Source: a virus
Length of the DNA stretch: 6,131 nucleotides
IMG/VR virus record: IMGVR_UViG_3300045988_000048
Span: 1-6,131 of that record
Reading direction: 5' to 3' (one strand)
Part shown: in pieces, positions 1 to 6,131 of the stretch
How the letters are laid out: every line of letters starts with the position of its first letter
How positions within the stretch are numbered: the stretch's first letter is position 1
Notes under the pieces: generated by a model
Told to the model about the DNA's origin: nothing
Seen by the model: only the letters and a program-made list of their open reading frames with translations
Database searches by the model: none
Position numbers and translations under genes: made by a program

Positions 1-366
1 TATGGTGCTTGTAAATTATTGGATTATCTGAATTATGGTTCTTTCCTTGATTCTGCTAATGCTAAGAAAGCTACTATTACTGAGGCTTATACTGGTATTA
101 AATCTATGAATGATAATTTGAATCCATTGTTGTATAAGAGTTCTGTGGCTGTTAATCTTCTTCCGTTGTTTACTTATCAGAAAATCTATTTTGATTTCTT
201 TAGCAATTCTCAATGGGAGAAGCATTTAGCTTATTCTTATAATTTGGATTATTGGAGTGGCGCTCAAATTTCTGACCTTTCTCAGGAATGGTTTAAACTT
301 CGTTATGCTAATTATCCTAAGGATATGTTTATGGGTGTACTCCCTGCTTCTCAGTATGGTTCGGTA
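1..366. repeat. Left copy of the 366-nt exact terminal redundancy (identical to 5766..6131). It is a wrap-around of a circular genome, not a biological terminal repeat.
   Basis: Base-by-base comparison of 1-366 with 5766-6131 found no mismatch. The ORF track also reports identical minus-strand ORFs at 16..225 and 5781..5990, an offset of 5765. The repeat lies inside the capsid gene. Confidence 0.95.
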
Positions 367-1311
367 GCGTTTCTTCAACCTCTTGATAAAAGTCTTGCTA
401 CTAATGTTGTTCTTGCTCGTGCTACTGATGGCATAAGTAATTCCTCTGTTCGTAATCTTTCTGGCGGTAGTACTGTGCAAACAACTTCATCTAATTCTAC
501 TGATTCTGATAGATTGCTTCGCGTCAACACTGACCTTTCCGCTCTCTCGATCCGTGCCACAGAGTATTTACAGCGTTGGAAAGAAGTAGTCCAATTCTCT
601 AGCAAGGATTATTCAGATCAGATGGCTGCCCAGTTTGGCGTTAAAGCTCCTGAATATATGGGTAATCATGCCCATTATATTGGTGGATGGAGTTCTGTTA
701 TTAATATTAATGAGGTTGTGAATACTAACCTTGATACCGATAGTTCACAGGCTAGTATCGCTGGTAAAGGTGTCGGTTCTAATTCTGGTCATCAGATCAC
801 ATATGATTGCGGAGCGGAACATTGTGTAATTATGTGTGTTTACCATGCTGTTCCATTGCTTGATTGGGCTTCTACTGGACAATCACCTCAGTTGTTATGT
901 ACTAGTGTTAGTGATTTCCCTCAACCTGCGTTTGATCAGTTAGGTATGCAGCCTGTTCCTGCTACTGCTATGTGTAATAGCAAGAATATGAGTGGTTCGA
1001 ATACTGCTAATATTGGTTATAACCTTCGTTATTGGCAATGGAAGTCTGATATTGATCGTGTGAATGGCGCTCTTCGGCCCCAGTTGGCTTATCAGGCTTG
1101 GGCTGCACCTCTTGGTGGTGAGAATTTATTGACGCGTACCGGTGCTTGGAATTATAAGTCTATGAAGGTGTTCCCCCAACAGCTTAATTCTATTTTCCAG
1201 CCTCAGGTTACTACGTCTACTTATTCTGTTGCACAGGACCAGTTGATTTGTAATGTTAATTTCCAAGTGTATGCTGTGCAAAACTTGGATCGTAATGGTT
1301 TACCTTATTAA
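1..1311 (+). CDS. VP1: Major capsid protein (VP1 / F-like), 3' portion of the same gene as 5343..6131. The joined protein is 577 aa.
   Basis: Frame 1 is open from nt 1 to the TAA at 1309-1311. Nt 1-366 duplicate 5766-6131, and the reading frame is preserved (5343 minus 5765 falls in the same phase as nt 1). Third codon positions are strongly T-rich, as in the other phage genes. The size is typical of gokushovirus/alpavirus capsid proteins. Confidence 0.93.
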   Translation, partial: YGACKLLDYLNYGSFLDSANAKKATITEAYTGIKSMNDNLNPLLYKSSVAVNLLPLFTYQKIYFDFFSNSQWEKHLAYSYNLDYWSGAQISDLSQEWFKLRYANYPKDMFMGVLPASQYGSVAFLQPLDKSLATNVVLARATDGISNSSVRNLSGGSTVQTTSSNSTDSDRLLRVNTDLSALSIRATEYLQRWKEVVQFSSKDYSDQMAAQFGVKAPEYMGNHAHYIGGWSSVININEVVNTNLDTDSSQASIAGKGVGSNSGHQITYDCGAEHCVIMCVYHAVPLLDWASTGQSPQLLCTSVSDFPQPAFDQLGMQPVPATAMCNSKNMSGSNTANIGYNLRYWQWKSDIDRVNGALRPQLAYQAWAAPLGGENLLTRTGAWNYKSMKVFPQQLNSIFQPQVTTSTYSVAQDQLICNVNFQVYAVQNLDRNGLPY

Positions 1312-1322
1312 AATGATTGATT

Positions 1323-1766
1323 ATGAGAGATTTTGCTTATAAACCCCAGATTAATGATGATCCTATTGATGTACCTACTGATGTAGAAGGTCATCCCGTG
1401 TATCAGGAATCTGTATTTGATTCAGTTCAGTTTGATGAGTTGGAGGATGGTTCATACATTCAGAATGATATGACTTCTATTCTTCTTAATCAAGAGAAGT
1501 ATCGCCGCTTGCTTGGTGATATGAATGTGAATAACATCCTTGCCCAGATGCATCCTACTCAGTCCACTGTGATGGATGATATGACTGACGAGGAACGCTT
1601 TAATTGTGTTATCTCGCGCCATTGTCAGACAATGTCAGAACGGCAAGCGGTTCTGAAGGAATTGGCTAGTCAGAAATCTGAGCTAACGGCCTATGCCGAA
1701 ATGATGTTGGCAGAGCAACAGTCAGCGCCCGATTCATCGTCCGCCCCTGACTCTTCTGCTCAATGA
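1323..1766 (+). CDS. Hypothetical acidic protein of 147 aa, possibly the internal scaffolding protein (VP3-like), judged from size, charge and position only.
   Basis: The tracked ORF 1317..1766 begins at a TTG. The first ATG is at 1323 (MRDFAYKPQ...). It lies 12 nt after the capsid stop, and its TGA (1764-1766) overlaps the next gene's ATG in an ATGA arrangement. It is rich in D/E and ends in a SAPDSS-SAPDSS repeat. I recognised no diagnostic motif, so the function is a guess from synteny. Confidence 0.7.
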   Translation: MRDFAYKPQINDDPIDVPTDVEGHPVYQESVFDSVQFDELEDGSYIQNDMTSILLNQEKYRRLLGDMNVNNILAQMHPTQSTVMDDMTDEERFNCVISRHCQTMSERQAVLKELASQKSELTAYAEMMLAEQQSAPDSSSAPDSSAQ

Positions 1767-2878
1767 GATTTTATGATATTGGAGAAAGCCCCTTAATGGG
1801 GCATTCCGAAAAACATATTGCTCCTCTTGTTCTTGGTGGTATTATTGCCGCCGGTGCTTCTCTTGCTGGTAATGCTATTGGTTCTGCCTCTCAAAATAAG
1901 GTGAATGATACTAATTTGCAGATCAGTCGTGAGAATAACGCATTTAATGCCGCTGAAGCTGAGAAACAGCGTAATTGGCAGGAATCTATGTGGAACAAGA
2001 ACAATGAGTATAACAGCCCATCGGCTATGATATCTCGTGGCCTTAATCCTTATATTGGTTCTTCTGTTGGTGCTGGTGTTTCTAAGTCCCCTGCTTCTGG
2101 TGGTGCTGCTGCGTCTGCTGCTAATGCTCCTAGTCTTCAGGCTTTCCGTCCGGATTTCTCTGATGTTGGTTCTGCTTTGGCTTCAATGGCCCAAGCTCGT
2201 GCTGCTATGCTTAATGCTGAACAGAATGCTGCTCTTACTCCATATAAGATGCAACAGATTCTCGGTGATACCAATTACCGTAATATTGGTGTTGGTCAAT
2301 CTGGTTATTGGAATTCTTCTACTGGCAGACGTTCTGCTCTGTTGGATCAGTCTAAGGAGTATCAGGAGCTTAGGAATATGGAGTTTGCTGCACGTCTTAC
2401 GTCTGCTCAAGAAGCTCAGATCTTATTGGATTCTAAAGCTCAACAGGTATTGAATAAATATCTTGATGAACAGCAACAGGCTGATTTGTTTATCAAAGGT
2501 CAGACATTGGCTAACCTCTATGCGCAAGGTGCATTGACTGAGGCTCAATATAAAAATCAGATGGCTCAGGCTGTTAAGACTGCTGCCGAAACTAATGGTA
2601 TTCGTATTAATAATAAGATCGCTGGGCAAACTGCTGATTCACTGATTTATGCTAATATTCATTCTAATCGTGCTCGAGGTTTATCTTCATTATGGGATTT
2701 TAAGAATGTTAATGTTTTGAAGAATATGGAATATTCTAAGGATAAGGCTTTACGCGATTATTATAAGTGGAGTTCTAAGCATAAACAGAAGGACGTTGAT
2801 TCTTATGAGTTGCGTAATGCTGTAGATTATGTTACGCGTATATTTCAAGGTGTTGGCAATAGTATTGGCCATAAGTAA
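1763..2878 (+). CDS. VP2: Minor capsid / DNA pilot protein (Microviridae VP2-like), 371 aa
   Basis: ATG 1763 overlaps the upstream stop (ATGA), which suggests translational coupling. An alternative start is ATG 1796, which has GGAG 11 nt upstream. A Gly/Ala-rich hydrophobic segment (IAPLVLGGIIAAGASLAGNAIGSA, nt 1817-1888) is followed by ...NWQESMWNKNNEYNSPSAMISRGLNPYIG. The GLNP motif (nt 2039-2050) is one I recall as conserved in microvirus VP2 proteins. The C-terminal half is long, rich in Q/A/K and probably helical. Confidence 0.8.
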   Translation: MRFYDIGESPLMGHSEKHIAPLVLGGIIAAGASLAGNAIGSASQNKVNDTNLQISRENNAFNAAEAEKQRNWQESMWNKNNEYNSPSAMISRGLNPYIGSSVGAGVSKSPASGGAAASAANAPSLQAFRPDFSDVGSALASMAQARAAMLNAEQNAALTPYKMQQILGDTNYRNIGVGQSGYWNSSTGRRSALLDQSKEYQELRNMEFAARLTSAQEAQILLDSKAQQVLNKYLDEQQQADLFIKGQTLANLYAQGALTEAQYKNQMAQAVKTAAETNGIRINNKIAGQTADSLIYANIHSNRARGLSSLWDFKNVNVLKNMEYSKDKALRDYYKWSSKHKQKDVDSYELRNAVDYVTRIFQGVGNSIGHK

Positions 2879-2896
2879 CATTCTTCAGGACTAGAA

Positions 2897-3062
2897 GCCC
2901 ATCGCGGCGTGTGAGCGATATACACCCGCCGCCCGCGTAGGGCCTGATCGAAATATGGAGCGGAGCGACTTCCTTATAGGAGCGCCCCGCTCCGGTATTT
3001 TAGCACGAAGGTGCGCAAAGGCAGGTTCTATCTGACCTGCCGTGCCTATACACCCCTGTATA
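2897..3062 (+). other. GC-rich cluster of hairpins in the noncoding region: a candidate complementary-strand origin on the packaged + strand, or a structured ncRNA
   Basis: Four hairpins found by hand. (1) 2897-2943: GCCC/GGGC closes inner GCGGC/GCCGC (2904-2908 with 2928-2932) and GTGT/ACAC (2909-2912 with 2922-2925). (2) 2957-2993: GGAGCGG/CCGCTCC, then GCG/CGC, then CTTC/GGAG. (3) 3020-3041: GGCAGGT/ACCTGCC with an 8-nt loop. It can be enclosed by GCACG (3003-3007) pairing with CGTGC (3041-3045). (4) 3047-3062: TATACA-CCCC-TGTATA. No ORF of 60 aa or more is tracked on either strand here. Confidence 0.5.
2957..3000 (+). terminator. Possible intrinsic terminator of the structural (VP1, 147-aa, VP2) transcript
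   Basis: An extended hairpin of about 14 bp (2957-2993) lies 79 nt after the VP2 stop and is followed by GGTATTTTA (T-tract at 2997-3000). The T-tract is short and offset by 3 nt, so the call is tentative. Confidence 0.35.
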
Positions 3063-3075
3063 CATTTACTTTTGC

Positions 3076-3102
3076 CCTAGATCCATTACTAATAGATCTA
3101 GG
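3076..3102. repeat. Perfect 8-bp inverted repeat, CCTAGATC-N11-GATCTAGG, with loop CATTACTAATA
   Basis: 3076-3083 is the exact reverse complement of 3095-3102, with an 11-nt AT-rich spacer. It could be a hairpin in ssDNA or RNA, or a binding site for a dimeric protein. Confidence 0.6.
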
Positions 3103-3115
3103 ATTTGTTAATTAA

Positions 3116-3141
3116 GCGAAGCCCCTAGTTGTGTGCGAAGC
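3116..3141 (+). other. Two copies of the GCGAAGC mini-hairpin heptamer (3116-3122 and 3135-3141)
   Basis: The exact heptamer occurs twice, 19 nt apart. d(GCGAAGC) is known as an exceptionally stable DNA mini-hairpin. A related CGAAG core also occurs at 3006-3010 inside GCAC-GAAG-GTGC. Confidence 0.5.
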
Positions 3142-3142
3142 A

Positions 3143-3180
3143 AAACCCGAGTTATCATCTCGGTTTCTCTTATTTCTTGT
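3143..3180 (+). terminator. Terminator-like hairpin followed by a T-rich tail
   Basis: CCGAG (3147-3151), loop TTATCAT, then CTCGG (3159-3163). AAA (3143-3145) can pair with TTT (3164-3166) across a bulged C3146. The tail is TTTCTCTTATTTCTT. The GC stem is only 5 bp, so this is moderate evidence. Confidence 0.4.
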
Positions 3181-3243
3181 CCATAAACGCACAACTCACA
3201 CTCTATCATAAATGGTCCTTTCTCCACAATTTCTAAAAAACAA

Positions 3244-3274
3244 TTTGGAAATACAAAAAAAAACCATACCTTTG
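3244..3274 (+). promoter_or_regulatory. Bacteroidetes-type promoter: -33 TTTG (3244-3247), 19-nt spacer, -7 TACCTTTG (3267-3274)
   Basis: This matches the Bacteroides primary-sigma consensus TTTG / TAnnTTTG. My recollection is that 19 nt is the usual spacing. It sits about 50 nt upstream of ATG 3325 and could drive the 64-aa ORF, the small peptide and rep. Confidence 0.55.
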
Positions 3275-3324
3275 CCCCATGTAGAAGTTATAACTATTAT
3301 TAACATTTTAAAAACATTACAATT

Positions 3325-3519
3325 ATGCAGAAATTTATCATTTCAGTTAAGGAAAAAAACACTGGTCGCGATGTTCTCTCGCCTTATATTGTCAATTCTC
3401 TGGATGGTCTTGGAGACTATTCTGAGCGAGTTTCTCCGATGGGTCTTATTGTTATTGTGGATTCGATTGAAGAAAAGAATGATTTTGTTGAACTTAAAAC
3501 TCAAGCCGATGAAAAGTAG
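3325..3519 (+). CDS. Hypothetical small acidic protein, 64 aa
   Basis: ORF from ATG to TAG, about 50 nt downstream of the Bacteroidetes-type promoter. Its codon third positions are T-rich like the capsid gene. The overlapping 126-aa frame (3212..3592) is Leu-rich, the usual look of an off-frame shadow. I recognised no motif. Confidence 0.55.
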   Translation: MQKFIISVKEKNTGRDVLSPYIVNSLDGLGDYSERVSPMGLIVIVDSIEEKNDFVELKTQADEK

Positions 3520-3592
3520 TAATATTTGGAAAATTGTAATTGGAGCTGTATCTGCCGCTCTTGGTTATATTCTTAGCGCTATAGGCGTTTAA
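3509..3592 (+). CDS. Possible 27-aa single-pass membrane peptide (MKSSNIWKIVIGAVSAALGYILSAIGV)
   Basis: ATG at 3509 overlaps the last codons of the 64-aa ORF in another frame, and the TAA is at 3590-3592. A short polar/basic N-terminus is followed by about 19 hydrophobic residues rich in small residues. It is very short, so this is a speculative call. Confidence 0.25.
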   Translation: MKSSNIWKIVIGAVSAALGYILSAIGV

Positions 3593-3644
3593 TTGATTTT
3601 ATTGTTTATTTATTTATTTATTGCCTATTCAGGCTTCTGGTTAT

Positions 3645-5324
3645 ATGAAATTTTCTCCTGATTTACTGAAAGCGGCTGACCATTGTCAGTATCGTTCATT
3701 CATTACTAATCGTTACACTGGTGCACGCATTGCCGTGGATTGTGGTCAATGTGATTATTGTATTCATAAGCGTGCTCAAAAGGCGTCTATGCGCGTGAAG
3801 ACCGCTGGAAGCTCCTTTAAGTACTCTTATTTTGTGACGCTTACGTATGATAACGAACATATTCCTCTATTTGATTGCAAAGTCCTTCACAGTGAATATG
3901 AGGATGTTGTAGGTATCTCAGGAGATATTCATTTTAGTGATGAATACCATAAATATATCCCTGTTTCTGAGTATCAATGTAATGATAACTCCGTGTTGCG
4001 TCATATTTTTTTCGAACAAGTTCAAGGCTCTGTGCCATTTGACCGTGAGCTTAAGAAATATATTCCTGTTAGGGATAATTGGTTTCTTAGTATGGACGCT
4101 ATTCGTAGCTTTATCTCTAAAACACAGGCCGTTGATAAAACGGACTATCCCGCTTCTACGCAATACGGTCGTGATAATCTTATTCCCTTCCTAAATTACG
4201 TTGATGTTCAGAACTATATTAAGCGCTTACGTAAACATTTATCTTTAAAATTAGGGTCTTATGAATCGTTACATTTCTACGCTGTGGGTGAGTACGGACC
4301 CGTACACTTCCGCCCGCATTATCATCTCTTATTATTCACGAACTCGGAGAAAGTCTCAGAGGTTTTACGATACTGTCACAGTAAGAGTTGGAAGCTCGGT
4401 CGTTCAGATTTCCAACGTACCGCTGGTGGAGCTAGCTCGTACGTTGCGAGTTACGTTAACAGCCTTAGCGCTGCTCCCCTATTATATCGCTCATGCCGCT
4501 CGTTTAAGCCCCGATCGAGAGCGTCTCTCGGATTTTTTGAAAAAGGCTGTGATTTCGTTGAAGACGAAGACCCTTATGCGCAAATTGAACAGAAAATCGA
4601 TTCTGTCGTTAACGGAAGACTCTATAATTTCAACGGCATCAGTGTTCGGTCAACTCCACCCTTGTCGTATATCCGTACCTTATTGCCCCGATTCTCGTCT
4701 GCTCGCGATGACGATAGTACTGCGATTGCTCGAATTCTTTGTGCTGTGCACCGAACGCCGCAAAGAATTGCAAGATATGGATTCATTGACTATAAACAGG
4801 ATTCAGTCTTGAGTCTTGTTCGTACTTATTATCAATATCTTAAAGCTACCCCTATTCTTACTGATGATGATAAGATTATATTACATGCTTCTCGGTGCCT
4901 TACTAGGTTCTGCAACAGTTCTAGTGATGTCGATATTGAATCTTATATTAATAAGTTATATCGGCTGTTCTTATATGTCTTTAAGTTCTTCCGTAATTGG
5001 CATTTGCCTTCCTTCGGTTCTGATCTTGGTGATTACTCCAATCGTATTCGTTTTATCGTTAAAACTGGGATAGAGTATGAGAAGAAGAAAGATTATGAAG
5101 GTTTACGAAATGTATTCTACTTACGCTCCCTTAACCCAGACATATCGGATTGTATGTTTGCGTTGCCTCAGGACGGGCGCGAGATGGATGTCTTGTCGGA
5201 TATTTCACGTGAAACGGTTCATTTTCTTGAGCAACTCAGGTACCGTAGTGCAACATTTTGTCGTGACATGATTAAGCATAAGAAACTTAATGATGCTAAC
5301 AATATATTTAATCGTATGGTCTAA
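3645..5324 (+). CDS. VP4: Rolling-circle replication initiation protein (HUH endonuclease, Microviridae VP4 / phiX174 gpA family), 559 aa from the first ATG
   Basis: The tracked ORF starts at TTG 3621, and the first ATG is at 3645 (MKFSPDLL...). Motifs: Cys cluster CGQCDYC (3741-3761); RCR motif I FVTLTYD (3831-3851); HUH motif HYHLLLF (4317-4337, preceded by EYGPVHFRP); paired catalytic tyrosines YVASYVNS (Tyr codons at 4440-4442 and 4452-4454), compared with YVAKYVNK as I recall it from phiX174 gpA. Confidence 0.93.
   Translation: MKFSPDLLKAADHCQYRSFITNRYTGARIAVDCGQCDYCIHKRAQKASMRVKTAGSSFKYSYFVTLTYDNEHIPLFDCKVLHSEYEDVVGISGDIHFSDEYHKYIPVSEYQCNDNSVLRHIFFEQVQGSVPFDRELKKYIPVRDNWFLSMDAIRSFISKTQAVDKTDYPASTQYGRDNLIPFLNYVDVQNYIKRLRKHLSLKLGSYESLHFYAVGEYGPVHFRPHYHLLLFTNSEKVSEVLRYCHSKSWKLGRSDFQRTAGGASSYVASYVNSLSAAPLLYRSCRSFKPRSRASLGFFEKGCDFVEDEDPYAQIEQKIDSVVNGRLYNFNGISVRSTPPLSYIRTLLPRFSSARDDDSTAIARILCAVHRTPQRIARYGFIDYKQDSVLSLVRTYYQYLKATPILTDDDKIILHASRCLTRFCNSSSDVDIESYINKLYRLFLYVFKFFRNWHLPSFGSDLGDYSNRIRFIVKTGIEYEKKKDYEGLRNVFYLRSLNPDISDCMFALPQDGREMDVLSDISRETVHFLEQLRYRSATFCRDMIKHKKLNDANNIFNRMV
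4261..4812 (+). CDS. Candidate overprinted gene: a 183-codon basic ORF in an alternative frame inside rep
   Basis: The ATG-to-stop ORF is in a different phase from rep and is unusually long for an off-frame ORF in this stop-rich, AT-rich genome. By my count it has about 28 R+K against about 14 D+E. Over the same span, rep codon third positions change from T-dominated to mixed C/G. I recognised no motif. Confidence 0.2.
   Translation: MNRYISTLWVSTDPYTSARIIISYYSRTRRKSQRFYDTVTVRVGSSVVQISNVPLVELARTLRVTLTALALLPYYIAHAARLSPDRERLSDFLKKAVISLKTKTLMRKLNRKSILSLTEDSIISTASVFGQLHPCRISVPYCPDSRLLAMTIVLRLLEFFVLCTERRKELQDMDSLTINRIQS
4929..4965 (+). promoter_or_regulatory. Speculative (+)-strand origin candidate: a hairpin inside rep whose loop contains ATATTAATAA
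   Basis: The stem pairs CGATAT (4931-4936) with ATATCG (4958-4963) and is extended by T4930-G4964 and G4929-C4965. The 21-nt loop contains ATATTAATAA (4945-4954), which is identical to the 10 nt immediately 3' of the gpA nick site in the phiX174 origin (CAACTTG/ATATTAATAAC). Confidence 0.2.
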
Positions 5325-5342
5325 TTTAATTATTAATTAATT

Positions 5343-6131
5343 ATGAGTGATTTTAACCCATTGGATCGTGCTAAGATTCCTACTCATCGATCCTCATTTG
5401 ATTTAAGTTCGAAGAAGCTATTCTCTGCTAAGGTTGGAGAAATTCTTCCTGTTTATTGGCAAATTGCCATTCCTGGCAATAAGTATCGTATCTCTTCGGA
5501 TTGGTTTACGCGTACTGTCCCTGTTAATACGGCTGCTTATACCCGTATTAAGGAATACTATGATTTTTATGCTGTGCCGTTGCGCTTGATTTCTCGTGCG
5601 CTTCCCCAAGCATTCACTCAGATGTCTGATTATATGACTTCTGCTGCCTCTGCTGGCTCTAATTCTGCACAACTTACTAAAGTTCCATTTACCACGACTA
5701 AAACTATTAGTGATTGGATGGCTTTAGCTCCTTCTGTTCTTGATGATGCAAATATCCCGTGGTTCTATGGTGCTTGTAAATTATTGGATTATCTGAATTA
5801 TGGTTCTTTCCTTGATTCTGCTAATGCTAAGAAAGCTACTATTACTGAGGCTTATACTGGTATTAAATCTATGAATGATAATTTGAATCCATTGTTGTAT
5901 AAGAGTTCTGTGGCTGTTAATCTTCTTCCGTTGTTTACTTATCAGAAAATCTATTTTGATTTCTTTAGCAATTCTCAATGGGAGAAGCATTTAGCTTATT
6001 CTTATAATTTGGATTATTGGAGTGGCGCTCAAATTTCTGACCTTTCTCAGGAATGGTTTAAACTTCGTTATGCTAATTATCCTAAGGATATGTTTATGGG
6101 TGTACTCCCTGCTTCTCAGTATGGTTCGGTA
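5343..6131 (+). CDS. VP1: Major capsid protein (Microviridae VP1 / F-like), 5' portion. It runs off the window end and continues at nt 1 of the circular genome.
   Basis: ATG at 5343 is the first in-frame start after a TAA at 5334-5336. I translated the frame by hand and it stays open to 6131. The N-terminus MSDFNPLDRAKIPTHRSSFDLSSKKLFSAKVGEILPVYWQIAIPGNKYRISSDWFTRTVPVNTAAYTRIKEYYDFYAVPLRLI fits the conserved microvirus capsid pattern (IP.hRS.FD.S, G.L.P, PG, F.R, DFYAVP.R). The frame is continuous with ORF 19..1311 once 5766 is mapped onto 1. The ORF track omits it only because no stop falls within the window. Confidence 0.93.
   Translation, partial: MSDFNPLDRAKIPTHRSSFDLSSKKLFSAKVGEILPVYWQIAIPGNKYRISSDWFTRTVPVNTAAYTRIKEYYDFYAVPLRLISRALPQAFTQMSDYMTSAASAGSNSAQLTKVPFTTTKTISDWMALAPSVLDDANIPWFYGACKLLDYLNYGSFLDSANAKKATITEAYTGIKSMNDNLNPLLYKSSVAVNLLPLFTYQKIYFDFFSNSQWEKHLAYSYNLDYWSGAQISDLSQEWFKLRYANYPKDMFMGVLPASQYGSV
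5766..6131. repeat. Right copy of the 366-nt terminal redundancy (identical to 1..366)
   Basis: Same evidence as for the left copy. The period is 5,765 nt. Confidence 0.95.

Follow-up and report, generated by a model that had tools for sequence, protein, structure and literature searches.

A conserved two-domain non-coding element between the pilot and Rep genes of gut microviruses is a candidate complementary-strand origin

The microvirus sequence analyzed here (6,131 nt, positions 1 to 6,131 of IMG/VR record IMGVR_UViG_3300045988_000048; referred to as the window) carries a structured non-coding element that, across a large group of viruses infecting Bacteroides-type bacteria of the human gut, is conserved better than any other sequence, genes included. 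We lean, with slightly better than even confidence, toward the element being an origin of complementary (-) strand synthesis that acts as folded single-stranded DNA (ssDNA). This reading is the best supported because of the strand asymmetry of its base pairs, mini-hairpins of the DNA type, a position between transcription units, an anatomy resembling the phage G4 origin and co-variation with Rep.

Extent and composition of the element

A sequence-only reading had singled out a hairpin island of about 58% G+C downstream of the structural genes, and its composition was reproduced by computation (0.578 for 2881-3060). The genome reaches its G+C maximum here, the best 150-nt segment being 2897-3046 (0.613, z = 3.5 relative to the genome mean of 0.403). 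Coding sequence is lower in G+C than the island, as had been stated; the single line counted at 30% was not a suitable background, which is about 40% since the genome mean is 0.403. The absence of a reading frame was also borne out, with no ORF of at least 40 aa on either strand of 2882-3211. Several database records label the element “hypothetical protein”.

The flagged island proved to be the 5′ half of a two-domain non-coding element of about 320 nt (approximately 2885-3205), which extends past the island to about 3205. In each of the 123 related genomes, the element is flanked by the pilot (VP2) and Rep genes and is found on the coding (packaged) strand. In Microviridae, the packaged strand is the coding-sense strand. 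Comparison among relatives indicates that the 3′ domain is an ancient conserved core and the 5′ domain clade-specific. The features are as follows.

2885..3066, + strand: 5′ domain, GC-rich hairpin island (G+C 0.578, DNA fold z = -4.8, clade-specific)
2901..2919, + strand: hairpin P1a, ATCGC/GCGAT with a 9-nt loop (98% paired)
2927..2943, + strand: compact H-type pseudoknot, S1 2927-2929/2935-2937 and S2 2931-2934/2940-2943 (covariation)
2957..2993, + strand: hairpin P2, two mutually exclusive registers (covariation for each)
2979..3002, + strand: terminator-like unit, hairpin P2′ followed by GGTATTTTAG (terminator scan)
3003..3014, + strand: hairpin P4, GCAC/GTGC, loops GNA-type or of 4 nt (3005:3012 AT95/GC29)
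3020..3041, + strand: hairpin P3, GGCAGGT/ACCTGCC (compensatory variants)
3076..3102, + strand: inserted palindrome with 13-bp arms, CCTAGATCCATTA/TAATAGATCTAGG (inverted repeat, outside the core)
3106..3200, + strand: 3′ domain with mH1, P6, mH2, P7 and a single-stranded pyrimidine tract (covariation, model R1)
3116..3122, + strand: mini-hairpin mH1, GCGAAGC (GCGAAGC 121, GCGGAGC 7, ACGAAGT 1)
3127..3196, + strand: long-range helix P6, which closes the 3′ domain by pairing 3127-3134 with 3189-3196 (covariation)
3135..3141, + strand: mini-hairpin mH2, X-CGAAG-X′, stacked on P6 (3135:3141 GC73/CG44/AT11)
3144..3166, + strand: hairpin P7, whose loop TTATC(A/C)T is conserved (6 of 8 pairs compensatory)
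3167..3189, + strand: single-stranded pyrimidine-rich tract with 3′ end CTTGTC(C/T)ATAAACG (invariant across the clade)
3244..3274, + strand: Bacteroidetes-type promoter motif TTTG-N-TAnnTTTG (sole match in the window)

Folding and covariation

Folding of the whole spacer (2879-3324) resulted in z = -5.4 as DNA, -5.8 as RNA of the + strand and -5.3 as RNA of the - strand, and 0 of 100 shuffles equaled it. The possibility raised by the sequence-only reading, that shuffled sequences might fold equally well, was thus dispelled for the spacer as a whole (z about -5). For the domains alone, folded as DNA, 2885-3066 reached z = -4.8, and the 3′ domain with nearest-neighbor DNA parameters was not significantly better than shuffles (z = -1.7).

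Compensatory covariation, which that reading had proposed to look for in related genomes, was found in most helices, including the pseudoknot and the alternative registers. Within the 5′ domain, 94.7% of cells were paired (28-49% when slid) and 9 of 31 pairs were compensatory; within the 3′ domain, the values were 97% (20-42% when slid) and 11 of 20 (0/500 shuffles for either domain). The pairs with the highest mutual information are Watson-Crick. The helices contain about 248 G.T versus about 44 A.C cells (poorly aligned P3 helix left out), and since G.T cells outnumber A.C cells, the + strand is the folded strand. The proposed fold in the packaged + strand is supported by this asymmetry as well as by the location on the coding strand in all 123 genomes.

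The four hairpins originally read from the sequence were recovered but had to be refined, as 2897-2943 is a hairpin plus a pseudoknot and 3003-3045 comprises two hairpins. In P1a, pair 2904:2916 occurs as GC105/AT15/CG2. The pseudoknot shows compensation at 2927:2937 (CG115/TA7/GC5), 2932:2942 (CG122/GC3) and 2934:2940 (CG120/TA5), and its stem S2 reaches 100% pairing, 2 of its pairs being compensatory. An outer stem (2897-2900/2940-2943) that competes with S2 is 94% paired with 0 compensatory pairs and was given less weight, though one sequence (L014) favors it.

The suspicion of alternative pairing registers was confirmed for 2957-2993, where two competing registers are each backed by covariation. 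The long register (2957-2963/2987-2993) is supported by 2963:2987 (GC113/AT4) and the short register, P2′ (2979-2984/2988-2993), by 2980:2992 (GC73/AT45). P2′ frees the 5′ arm as a mini-hairpin (2960-2966), which reads GCGGAGC in 112 of 129 sequences and GCGAAGC in another 13. An inner extension of P2 in the minimum-free-energy fold (2965-2985) is contradicted by covariation, as 2980 pairs with 2992 and not with 2972. A long-range pairing of 2957-2966 with 3115-3124 suggested by RNAalifold was set aside because all of its pairs are invariant, and the local covarying helices were preferred.

Further downstream, the loops of P4 are GTAG (42), GGA (31), GAAG (18) and AGA (11), and P3 occurs in the compensatory variants GGCAAGAC/..CTTGCC and GGGAGTG/..CCTCCC. 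The hairpin at 3047-3062 is weak and dispensable, being deleted in about 14 relatives. The palindrome at 3076-3102 is present in about 20 of 116 genomes, in some followed by T5-8, and unrelated inserts occupy the same site elsewhere, which makes the junction of the two domains a hot spot for insertions.

In the 3′ domain, the mH1 variant ACGAAGT preserves the closing pair by compensation. P6 covaries at 3131:3192 (GC122/CG7), 3132:3191 (TA113/CG8/AT6/GC1) and 3133:3190 (GC118/AT10). The closing pair of mH2, 3135:3141, is the strongest covarying pair of the whole element, and mH2 variants include GCGAAAGC, CCGGAGG and CCGAAGG. The unpaired tract at 3167-3189 is a candidate priming or recognition site.

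Conservation, range and transcription signals

Median nucleotide identity is 90.5% for the 5′ domain (119 genomes) and 88.8% for the 3′ domain, with VP1, VP2 and Rep below both at 72, 70 and 84%, respectively. The element is among the most conserved 30-mers of the genome. Identity of the 3′ domain tracks that of Rep (rho 0.52) and not that of VP1 (0.04), and similarity to several relatives begins exactly at 2883 and continues through Rep.

A blast search with the region gave matches confined to its own clade. The covariance model of the 3′ domain (R1) matched Dulem 257 (51 bits, E 1e-8) and phiHBP1 (42 bits, E 8e-7), a newly cultured Bacteroides fragilis phage (PMC13064476). Further matches were mar63 (E 0.002) and bajarodmic 622 (E 0.025), followed by the weaker Dulem 245 (E 0.12) and Dulem 263 (E 0.59); every one is in coding-strand orientation and located between the pilot and Rep genes. 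CTTGTC..ATA is kept in three of the four aligned outgroup matches, phiHBP1 retaining CTTGT only, and in the corresponding place the outgroups have GC peaks, clusters of mini-hairpins or both, which would be functional analogues. The model of the 5′ domain (R2) gave no match outside the clade. The 5′ domain is dispensable, since it is missing entirely from five genomes whose Rep is of the same type (75-85% aa identity). As for the host, a Phocaeicola dorei CRISPR array contains spacers against the element; with the exception of this single array, the more than 120 metagenome matches are all microvirus-sized contigs.

A GC-rich hairpin directly followed by a sense-strand T-run, the arrangement of a terminator, is found at 2979-3002 (GGAGCGCCCCGCTCC plus GGTATTTTAG). 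GGTAnTTTAG is invariant and the T-run of this unit is conserved. One relative (L250) keeps the terminator-like unit as the only part of the 5′ domain, with a longer T-run. The terminator scan flagged a second relative (L255) and did not flag a hairpin that was read by eye in a third (L272). From its sequence, 2979-3002 is the probable end of the late VP1-VP2 transcript.

On the other side, the promoter motif follows about 65 nt downstream at a fixed distance in 117 of 184 unique relatives, compared with 6 of 184 control segments. The motif is predicted to be the promoter of the early operon (small ORFs and Rep) and would bound the element downstream. With terminator-like signals upstream and a conserved Bacteroidetes-type promoter downstream, the 3′ domain lies between transcription units. 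Inside the element, TTTG-N-TAnnTTTG is absent, a sigma-70 scan gave no convincing match, and there is none ahead of the element either. The search for a Bacteroidetes promoter mimic within it returned near-matches alone (TATTTTAG and TAGTTGTG).

The candidate origin and its alternatives

The closest likeness is to the complementary-strand origin of the phages G4, St-1 and alpha3, at which DnaG alone primes SSB-coated ssDNA from a defined start (CTG in E. coli). The G4 origin and the element are both intergenic in Microviridae, lie on the packaged strand and form a local G+C maximum (0.577 in G4, with flanks of 0.40-0.46; 0.578 here), and both consist of consecutive stable hairpins (z = -4.7 for G4, -4.8 for 2885-3066). 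They also share mini-hairpins of the form GCGNAGC/GCGNNAGC, G4 having GCGAAAGC beside its primer site (PMC13037366). The element carries three cGNAg mini-hairpins (GCGGAGC, GCGAAGC and GCGAAGC), and X-CGNAG-X′ heptamers reach 9.3/kb in it versus 0.57/kb elsewhere, so that GCGNAGC/GCGNNAGC motifs are 16-fold enriched. Such mini-hairpins are extraordinarily stable as DNA, whereas r(GCGAAAGC) has a melting temperature of 39 C; SSB binds poorly to them, they resist nucleases, and they are known from the G4, St-1 and alpha3 primase origins and from RSF1010 ssiA (PMC13037366). The element differs from G4 in length (about 320 versus about 136 nt), in its two domains, three mini-hairpins, pseudoknot and long-range closing helix, in its location (between pilot and Rep, rather than between F and G) and in its Bacteroidales host. 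Models R1 and R2 gave no match on G4.

Other known systems resemble the element in part. The phiX174 n′ (PriA) site is likewise an intergenic ssDNA hairpin of a microvirus and triggers complementary-strand priming (PMC9865509), a role proposed here; it differs in that one hairpin, about 55 nt long, activates the PriA ATPase and assembles a primosome through E. coli PriA-PriB-DnaT. Hairpins upstream of Rep have been predicted as (-) origins in unrelated microviruses (PMC9865509). The f1/M13 intergenic region, plasmid ssoA/U/T/W and the GEBRO motif (named for its raised G+C content and its location between origins of replication) are multi-hairpin non-coding ssDNA modules of several hundred nt that, as here, are orientation-dependent, GC-enriched and adjoin the Rep module (PMC5737381). 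In M13/ssoA-type origins, a hairpin mimics a host promoter (-35/-10, or -33 TTTG/-7 TAnnTTTG in Bacteroidetes), and ssoA also has a CS-6 loop, TAGCGT. Scans of 2885-3205 for linear motifs gave no internal promoter, a structural mimic of non-linear geometry being beyond their reach; inspection showed no TAGCGT, and no Rfam match links the element to GEBRO. RSF1010 ssiA/ssiB and the N4 hairpin promoters use CCGAAGG or GCGGAGC, heptamers also present here, in a primase or RNA polymerase signal (PMC13037366); they differ in being single hairpins of at most 40 nt read by plasmid- or phage-encoded enzymes. No primase or polymerase gene is encoded by this virus. To our knowledge, PriB and DnaT are not general outside gamma-proteobacteria.

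Based on these comparisons, we propose the following mechanism. Once the ssDNA is inside the cell, SSB of the host would coat the genome while the very stable hairpins remain folded (the three cGNAg mini-hairpins, the pseudoknot and helices P3, P4, P6 and P7). They would leave accessible the conserved loops and a short pyrimidine tract in single-stranded form (CTTGTCYATAAACG), where a host priming enzyme would make the RNA primer for conversion of ssDNA to the replicative form. The enzyme would most likely be DnaG primase, as for phage G4, or alternatively host RNA polymerase, as for M13. The 5′ domain may be a clade-specific auxiliary module that also holds the probable late-operon terminator. 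An origin of the (-) strand had been suggested from the sequence before; comparison makes it the best-supported reading, but the most origin-like and widely conserved part, 3106-3200, lies outside the island to which it had been assigned.

The main competitor, which we consider unlikely, is that the element, or at least its 5′ domain, acts as RNA, forming a structured 3′ terminus on late VP1-VP2 mRNA, be it as a terminator with a 3′-exonuclease block, a processed 3′-UTR-derived small RNA or a new ncRNA with tertiary structure. Read-through transcripts contain the element because genes and folded strand are all + sense. The RNA folding score (z = -5.8), the terminator-like combination of P2′ and T-run, the likeness of the pseudoknot and alternative registers to RNA switches, and tolerated G.T(U) wobbles (3024:3037 GT41, 2958:2992 GT46) fit this idea. 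Yet G.T intermediates make up only about 0.5% of cells in unambiguous helices despite many G:C-to-A:T switches, and cGNAg triloops stabilize DNA far more than RNA. UUCG-type loops are absent from the element, and its only GNRA-type loop is GAAA in minority mH2 variants. Further, the 3′ domain begins only after the terminator-like signals and precedes the conserved promoter of the early operon, and the lack of a promoter motif ahead of the element likewise argues against it. A known ribozyme or ncRNA, offered earlier as an alternative, was not found: the Rfam 15 scan of 2700-3500 (E up to 10) returned noise and no family at E<0.1, the best match being mir-383 (20 bits versus 70 required, E = 0.13), and ARAGORN predicted no tRNA or tmRNA. 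Action as DNA rather than RNA is what these observations suggest, bearing in mind that sequence analysis cannot reliably separate ssDNA from RNA structures (PMC5737381).

Some observations speak against the origin reading. Functional RNAs more typically have features such as the pseudoknot, the invariant T.G pair 3134:3189 and the long unpaired segments, which are invariant as well. Located upstream of the terminator-like hairpin, the 5′ domain would belong to the 3′ end of the late mRNA. It is also the dispensable part, and the element has no sequence homology to the G4 origin.

Readings at the level of DNA other than priming are less probable. We regard it as improbable that the element is the (+)-strand origin, nicked by Rep (VP4) for rolling-circle replication and packaging, with loop GATATACACC (2917-2926) and repeat CTATACACC (3046-3054) as recognition sequences. 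The element travels with the Rep module, and a conserved hairpin-loop sequence, with TATACACCC present twice, recalls HUH-Rep origins. This reading of the 5′ domain is weakened because genomes of the same Rep type do without it; moreover, phiX174 and G4 nick within the Rep gene (G4 505-517), where a conserved candidate of this type exists here at 4926-4955, and Rep nicks the double-stranded replicative form, for which 300 nt of covarying single-strand structure is not needed. A different DNA-level role, such as a packaging or condensation signal, a shield excluding SSB or nucleases, or a decoy against host defenses, is given marginally less credence than that reading. Nuclease resistance and poor SSB binding of the mini-hairpins (PMC13037366), the presence of the element on the packaged strand of every genome and its targeting by host CRISPR would suit such a role. 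Against it stand the fixed position beside the replication module and the lack of any protein or defense system linked to the element. In addition, microvirus packaging, as established for phiX174, is coupled to Rep-driven rolling-circle synthesis and needs no separate pac site.

Foreign DNA, either an attP/dif-like recombination site that mimics one of the host chromosome or a mobile or cellular element acquired recently, is the least credible origin of the sequence and in our view highly improbable. Its composition is unlike the rest of the genome, and XerCD-mediated integration into dif-like non-coding sites is known for some microviruses (PMC7062461). However, a search with a dif consensus of the proteobacterial type (28 bp, two 11-bp arms around a 6-bp spacer) gave 15 loose matches, none of which falls in 2885-3205. 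Resemblance of GGTGCGCA (3010-3017) to an E. coli XerC arm was judged coincidental because the adjacent spacer and XerD arm are missing. The suggestion of an acquired element did not hold, as distant blastn against a plasmid collection gave no match and the bacterial-genome matches listed are due to chance: the 17-mer GATATACACCCGCNGCC occurs in bacterial genomes, all 123 occurrences among the matches listed lack every other motif of the element, and about 280 are expected by chance in 596 Gb. The restriction of metagenome matches to microvirus-sized contigs and covariation, which reflects selection on a fold and not on a duplex site, also disagree with this explanation.

A more unconventional possibility, which we hold to be distinctly unlikely though above the (+)-strand origin, is that a defined tertiary fold (pseudoknot, three stacked mini-hairpins, P2/P2′ switch and invariant loops) captures a Bacteroidales RNA polymerase or primase as an “ssDNA promoter or aptamer” unlike the E. 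coli paradigms, or that the element is a new structured viral ncRNA unrelated to replication. If true, this would be the first such defined cis-element in microviruses outside the enterobacterial group, phages that rank with the most abundant of the human gut.

Returning to the complementary-strand origin, we know of such origins in Microviridae being experimentally defined for E. coli phages only (phiX174, G4, St-1 and alpha3), and of no mapped signal for the ssDNA-to-dsDNA step, the first of infection, in the microviruses of gokushovirus and Bacteroidales type, which predominate in gut viromes. The element provides a sharply bounded candidate signal with a covariation-supported structure. 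Because its core is shared with the cultured phage phiHBP1, the question is directly testable, and, being the most conserved sequence of the clade, the element would also make a good detection marker for these viruses.

Structured non-coding DNA between the pilot and Rep genes

The window spans the whole of a circular microvirus genome (5,765 nt) plus an exact terminal duplication of 366 nt (1-366 = 5766-6131), with genes on the + strand only. Its sole large non-coding stretch, 2879-3324, contains the element, which is divided into a 5' domain (2885-3066) and a 3' domain (3106-3200).

Genes and candidate signals of the genome
5343 across the circular junction to 1311, + strand: VP1
between VP1 and VP2, + strand: small ORF
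1763-2878, + strand: pilot protein VP2
2979-3002: conserved terminator-like hairpin with T-run
3244-3274: Bacteroidetes-type promoter motif TTTGGAAATACAAAAAAAAACCATACCTTTG (TTTG-N-TAnnTTTG), preceding the small ORFs and Rep
from 3325, + strand: small ORFs
3645-5324, + strand: Rep/VP4
4926-4955: candidate (+)-strand (Rep nick) origin GATGTCGATATTGAATCTTATATTAATAAG, inside the Rep gene, containing ATATTAATAA

The sequence-only reading had described an island of consecutive hairpins (2881-3062) with about 58% G+C and no ORF. We measured 57.8% G+C for 2881-3060, found no ORF of at least 40 aa in the island and recovered the listed hairpins. Among 150-nt windows, G+C peaks at 2897-3046 (61.3%, z = 3.5 against a genome mean of 40.3%). 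Compared with dinucleotide shuffles, the spacer yielded fold z-scores of -5.4 (DNA), -5.8 (+ RNA) and -5.3 (- RNA), and the island alone, as DNA, -4.8. As all of these properties were recovered, the observation is confirmed.

In a mutual-information scan without an energy model, the top-ranked pairs were Watson-Crick-compatible. In the 3' domain (diverse 28-sequence alignment), 97% of cells were paired versus 20-42% with slid partners, with two-sided changes at 11 of 20 pairs. The corresponding values for the 5' domain were 94.7% versus 28-49%, with nine compensatory pairs. For either domain, 0 of 500 shuffles reached the observed values. Relatives show both conservation and compensatory covariation, and we conclude that the feature is real, structured and under strong selection.

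Structural parts of the element
2901-2919: hairpin P1a, 5' domain
2927-2929/2935-2937 (S1) and 2931-2934/2940-2943 (S2): compact pseudoknot, 5' domain, compensatory changes in both stems
5' domain: hairpin P2, two mutually exclusive registers, both supported (2980:2992, GC 73/AT 45; 2963:2987, GC 113/AT 4)
3003-3014: P4, 5' domain
3020-3041: P3, 5' domain
5' domain: P5, dispensable
3116-3122: mini-hairpin mH1, 3' domain
3127-3134/3189-3196: long-range helix P6, 3' domain
3135-3141: mini-hairpin mH2, 3' domain, stacked on P6
3144-3166: hairpin P7, 3' domain
3' domain: single-stranded pyrimidine tract ending in invariant CTTGTCYATAAACG

A T.G juxtaposition (3134/3189) at the inner end of P6, beside mH2, was invariant in 129 of 129 sequences. 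The inter-domain spacer (3066-3105) forms a hot spot for insertions. At this site the window, like about 20 relatives, has a palindrome with 13-bp arms (3076-3102), sometimes followed by T5-8 as in a terminator. L073 carries a different palindromic unit of ~23 nt there, repeated three times in tandem, and L014 an insert of 140 nt; the observation also covers L047, L050, L087 and L094. These inserts may be tiny mobile palindromes. In a divergent sub-lineage (L012, L016, L018, L042, L078, L273), a shorter segment with two extra GCGAAGC-type heptamers (GGAGCGAAGCGACC...AAAGCGAAGCGG) replaces P2 (homologue of 2957-2993); mini-hairpins were therefore gained where a long hairpin was lost.

Conservation, phylogenetic range and host

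By blast, the region was matched at 70-82% identity in 34 deposited microvirus records sampled from lemurs, dogs and humans. For several of these, the similarity starts exactly at 2883 and extends through Rep, with diverged structural genes. Motif scans of IMG/VR and metagenomes added at least 250 further copies, nearly all on ~6-kb human gut contigs. Since the first scan motif admitted only sequences with a stretch of the 5' domain unchanged, the scan was redone with an independent 3' motif, which recovered 5'-motif variants and removed this ascertainment problem. Among 125 genomes of the clade of related gut microviruses, median identity to the window was 90.5% for the 5' domain and 88.8% for the 3' domain; the corresponding gene values are 72% (VP1), 70% (VP2) and 84% (Rep) for nucleotides and 68%, 51% and 82% for amino acids. 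Position and orientation were constant: all of 123 genomes have the element on the coding strand, between VP2 and Rep. "Hypothetical protein" CDSs are annotated over it or its homologues in Dulem 242, 254, 255 and 257 and in phiHBP1 (L005 1458-1784; L006 and L008 1360-1512; L277 2326-2736; L280 3581-3784); these calls are probably spurious, because the region covaries and has no conserved ORF.

Rep similarity is at least 59% inside the clade and ~30% outside, where Bacteroides phage phiHBP1 belongs, the first microvirus of Bacteroidota to be cultured (PMC13064476). A term search of the phiHBP1 paper found no mention of intergenic regions or hairpins, and "origin" never in the sense of replication (PMC13064476). 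The covariance model of the 3' domain gave full-length coding-strand matches between pilot and Rep genes in all outgroups tested: Dulem 257 (51 bits, E 1e-8), phiHBP1 (42 bits, E 8e-7), mar63 (E 0.002), bajarodmic 622 (E 0.025) and, weakly, Dulem 245 (E 0.12) and Dulem 263 (E 0.59). Changes in the outgroup helices were compensatory, and the single-stranded CTTGTC..ATA motif was kept in three of the four aligned matches, phiHBP1 having only CTTGT. Clusters of mini-hairpins follow the pilot gene in phiHBP1, Dulem 263, 245 and 257 and bajarodmic 622. The genomic G+C peak is also located there in four of these five (in Dulem 257 it is inside the pilot gene), reaching 63% (z = 4.6) with six mini-hairpins in phiHBP1; mar63 showed no clear island. 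The 5'-domain model found no match outside the clade, and five clade genomes of the same Rep type (L250, L255, L262, L267, L272) retain the 3' domain but lack the 5' domain; of the latter, L250 has kept just the P2 hairpin, with a longer T-run. For these reasons the island is a lineage-specific, partly dispensable module on an old core.

One of the metagenome matches (L352; ERZ1504592 NODE-296, 4382-5975) is a Phocaeicola dorei chromosome fragment, not a virus. It carries a type I-C CRISPR-Cas locus, and its Cas1 shows no difference from Cas1c of that species. Of the 19 unique spacers in the array, 12 match the microvirus clade, eight of the 12 with a TTC PAM. Two spacers target the non-coding 3' domain (window-equivalent 3114-3145, and mH2 plus P7 of a variant), and one of these matches 127 loci, the most of any spacer. 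These matches identify Phocaeicola (Bacteroidales) as a host, in agreement with the promoter type and with phiHBP1.

Probable role in complementary-strand synthesis and competing explanations

In well-aligned helices, ~248 G.T cells far outnumber ~44 A.C cells, identifying the + strand as the folded strand, which fits virion ssDNA and sense RNA alike. The element contains three X-CGNAG-X' heptamers (GCGGAGC 2960, GCGAAGC 3116, GCGAAGC 3135). Their closing pairs covary, and they occur at 9.3/kb versus 0.57/kb in the rest of the same genomes (16-fold enrichment). Their discoverers' 2026 review describes such mini-hairpins as extraordinarily stable in DNA form but not in RNA form (r(GCGAAAGC) melts at 39 C) and as poor binders of SSB, and places them at the G4 (GCGAAAGC) and St-1/alpha3 (GCGTTAGC) primase origins, in RSF1010 ssiA (CCGAAGG) and in N4 hairpin promoters (GCGGAGC) (PMC13037366). 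Weinberg et al. drew on this kind of reasoning from loops for the reverse inference (PMC2864571). Unambiguous helices switch from G:C to A:T with nearly no G.T intermediates. The 3' domain lies between putative transcription signals. On its upstream side are the conserved terminator-like hairpin with T-run (2979-3002), terminator-like palindromes that some genomes have in the inter-domain spacer and, in L255, a plain 17-bp terminator-like hairpin occupying the site of the 5' domain; downstream, the promoter motif follows the element by ~65 nt at a fixed distance in 117 of 184 relatives versus 6 of 184 control segments. Together, heptamers, their chemistry, scarce G.T intermediates and this position favour DNA without proving it; the authors of a 224-motif survey state that ssDNA and RNA motifs are not reliably separable by bioinformatics (PMC5737381). 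A role as RNA, notably with the 5' domain forming the 3' end of the late mRNA, seems unlikely to us.

We lean towards the element working as folded ssDNA that starts complementary-strand synthesis. The annotated complementary-strand origin of G4 (F-G intergenic, primer 3970-3997) shares its gross anatomy: G+C along the G4 genome peaks there (0.577 versus 0.40-0.46 in the flanks), and the origin forms three hairpins (z = -4.7), with GCGAAAGC in hairpin I. Neither domain's covariance model detected homology to it, the 3' model giving no match to G4. The (-)-strand origin proposed from sequence is the best-supported reading. We regard a G4-like mechanism as more probable than a phiX-like one; the priming enzyme and the start site are what we infer. 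A (+)-strand origin with the Rep nick site is weakened by the five genomes that have the same Rep type and no 5' domain, and by the phiX/G4-like candidate already present inside Rep (4926-4955). In the latter, the core of the phiX174/G4 gene-A origin is present as ATATTAATAA (G4 carries TGATATTAATAAC at 505-517), a motif match that is statistically weak on its own. The candidate ranks among the five most conserved 30-mers, and its third codon positions have a conservation of 0.93 where Rep averages 0.70 (z = 1.7). The suggestion of an acquired element, as foreign DNA or attP, found no support: there was no plasmid match, no genuine bacterial-genome match among the matches listed, and no dif-like site in the element by a proteobacterial-type consensus. 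An uncultured Bacteroidetes chromosome (OY969813.1; L140, 3295-5021) has a chance 17-mer match four times at an exact 570-nt spacing; these tandem copies probably belong to a coding domain that is itself repeated and have no relation to the element.

We conclude that the element is a new variant of a known element type, and one that is now accessible to experiment.
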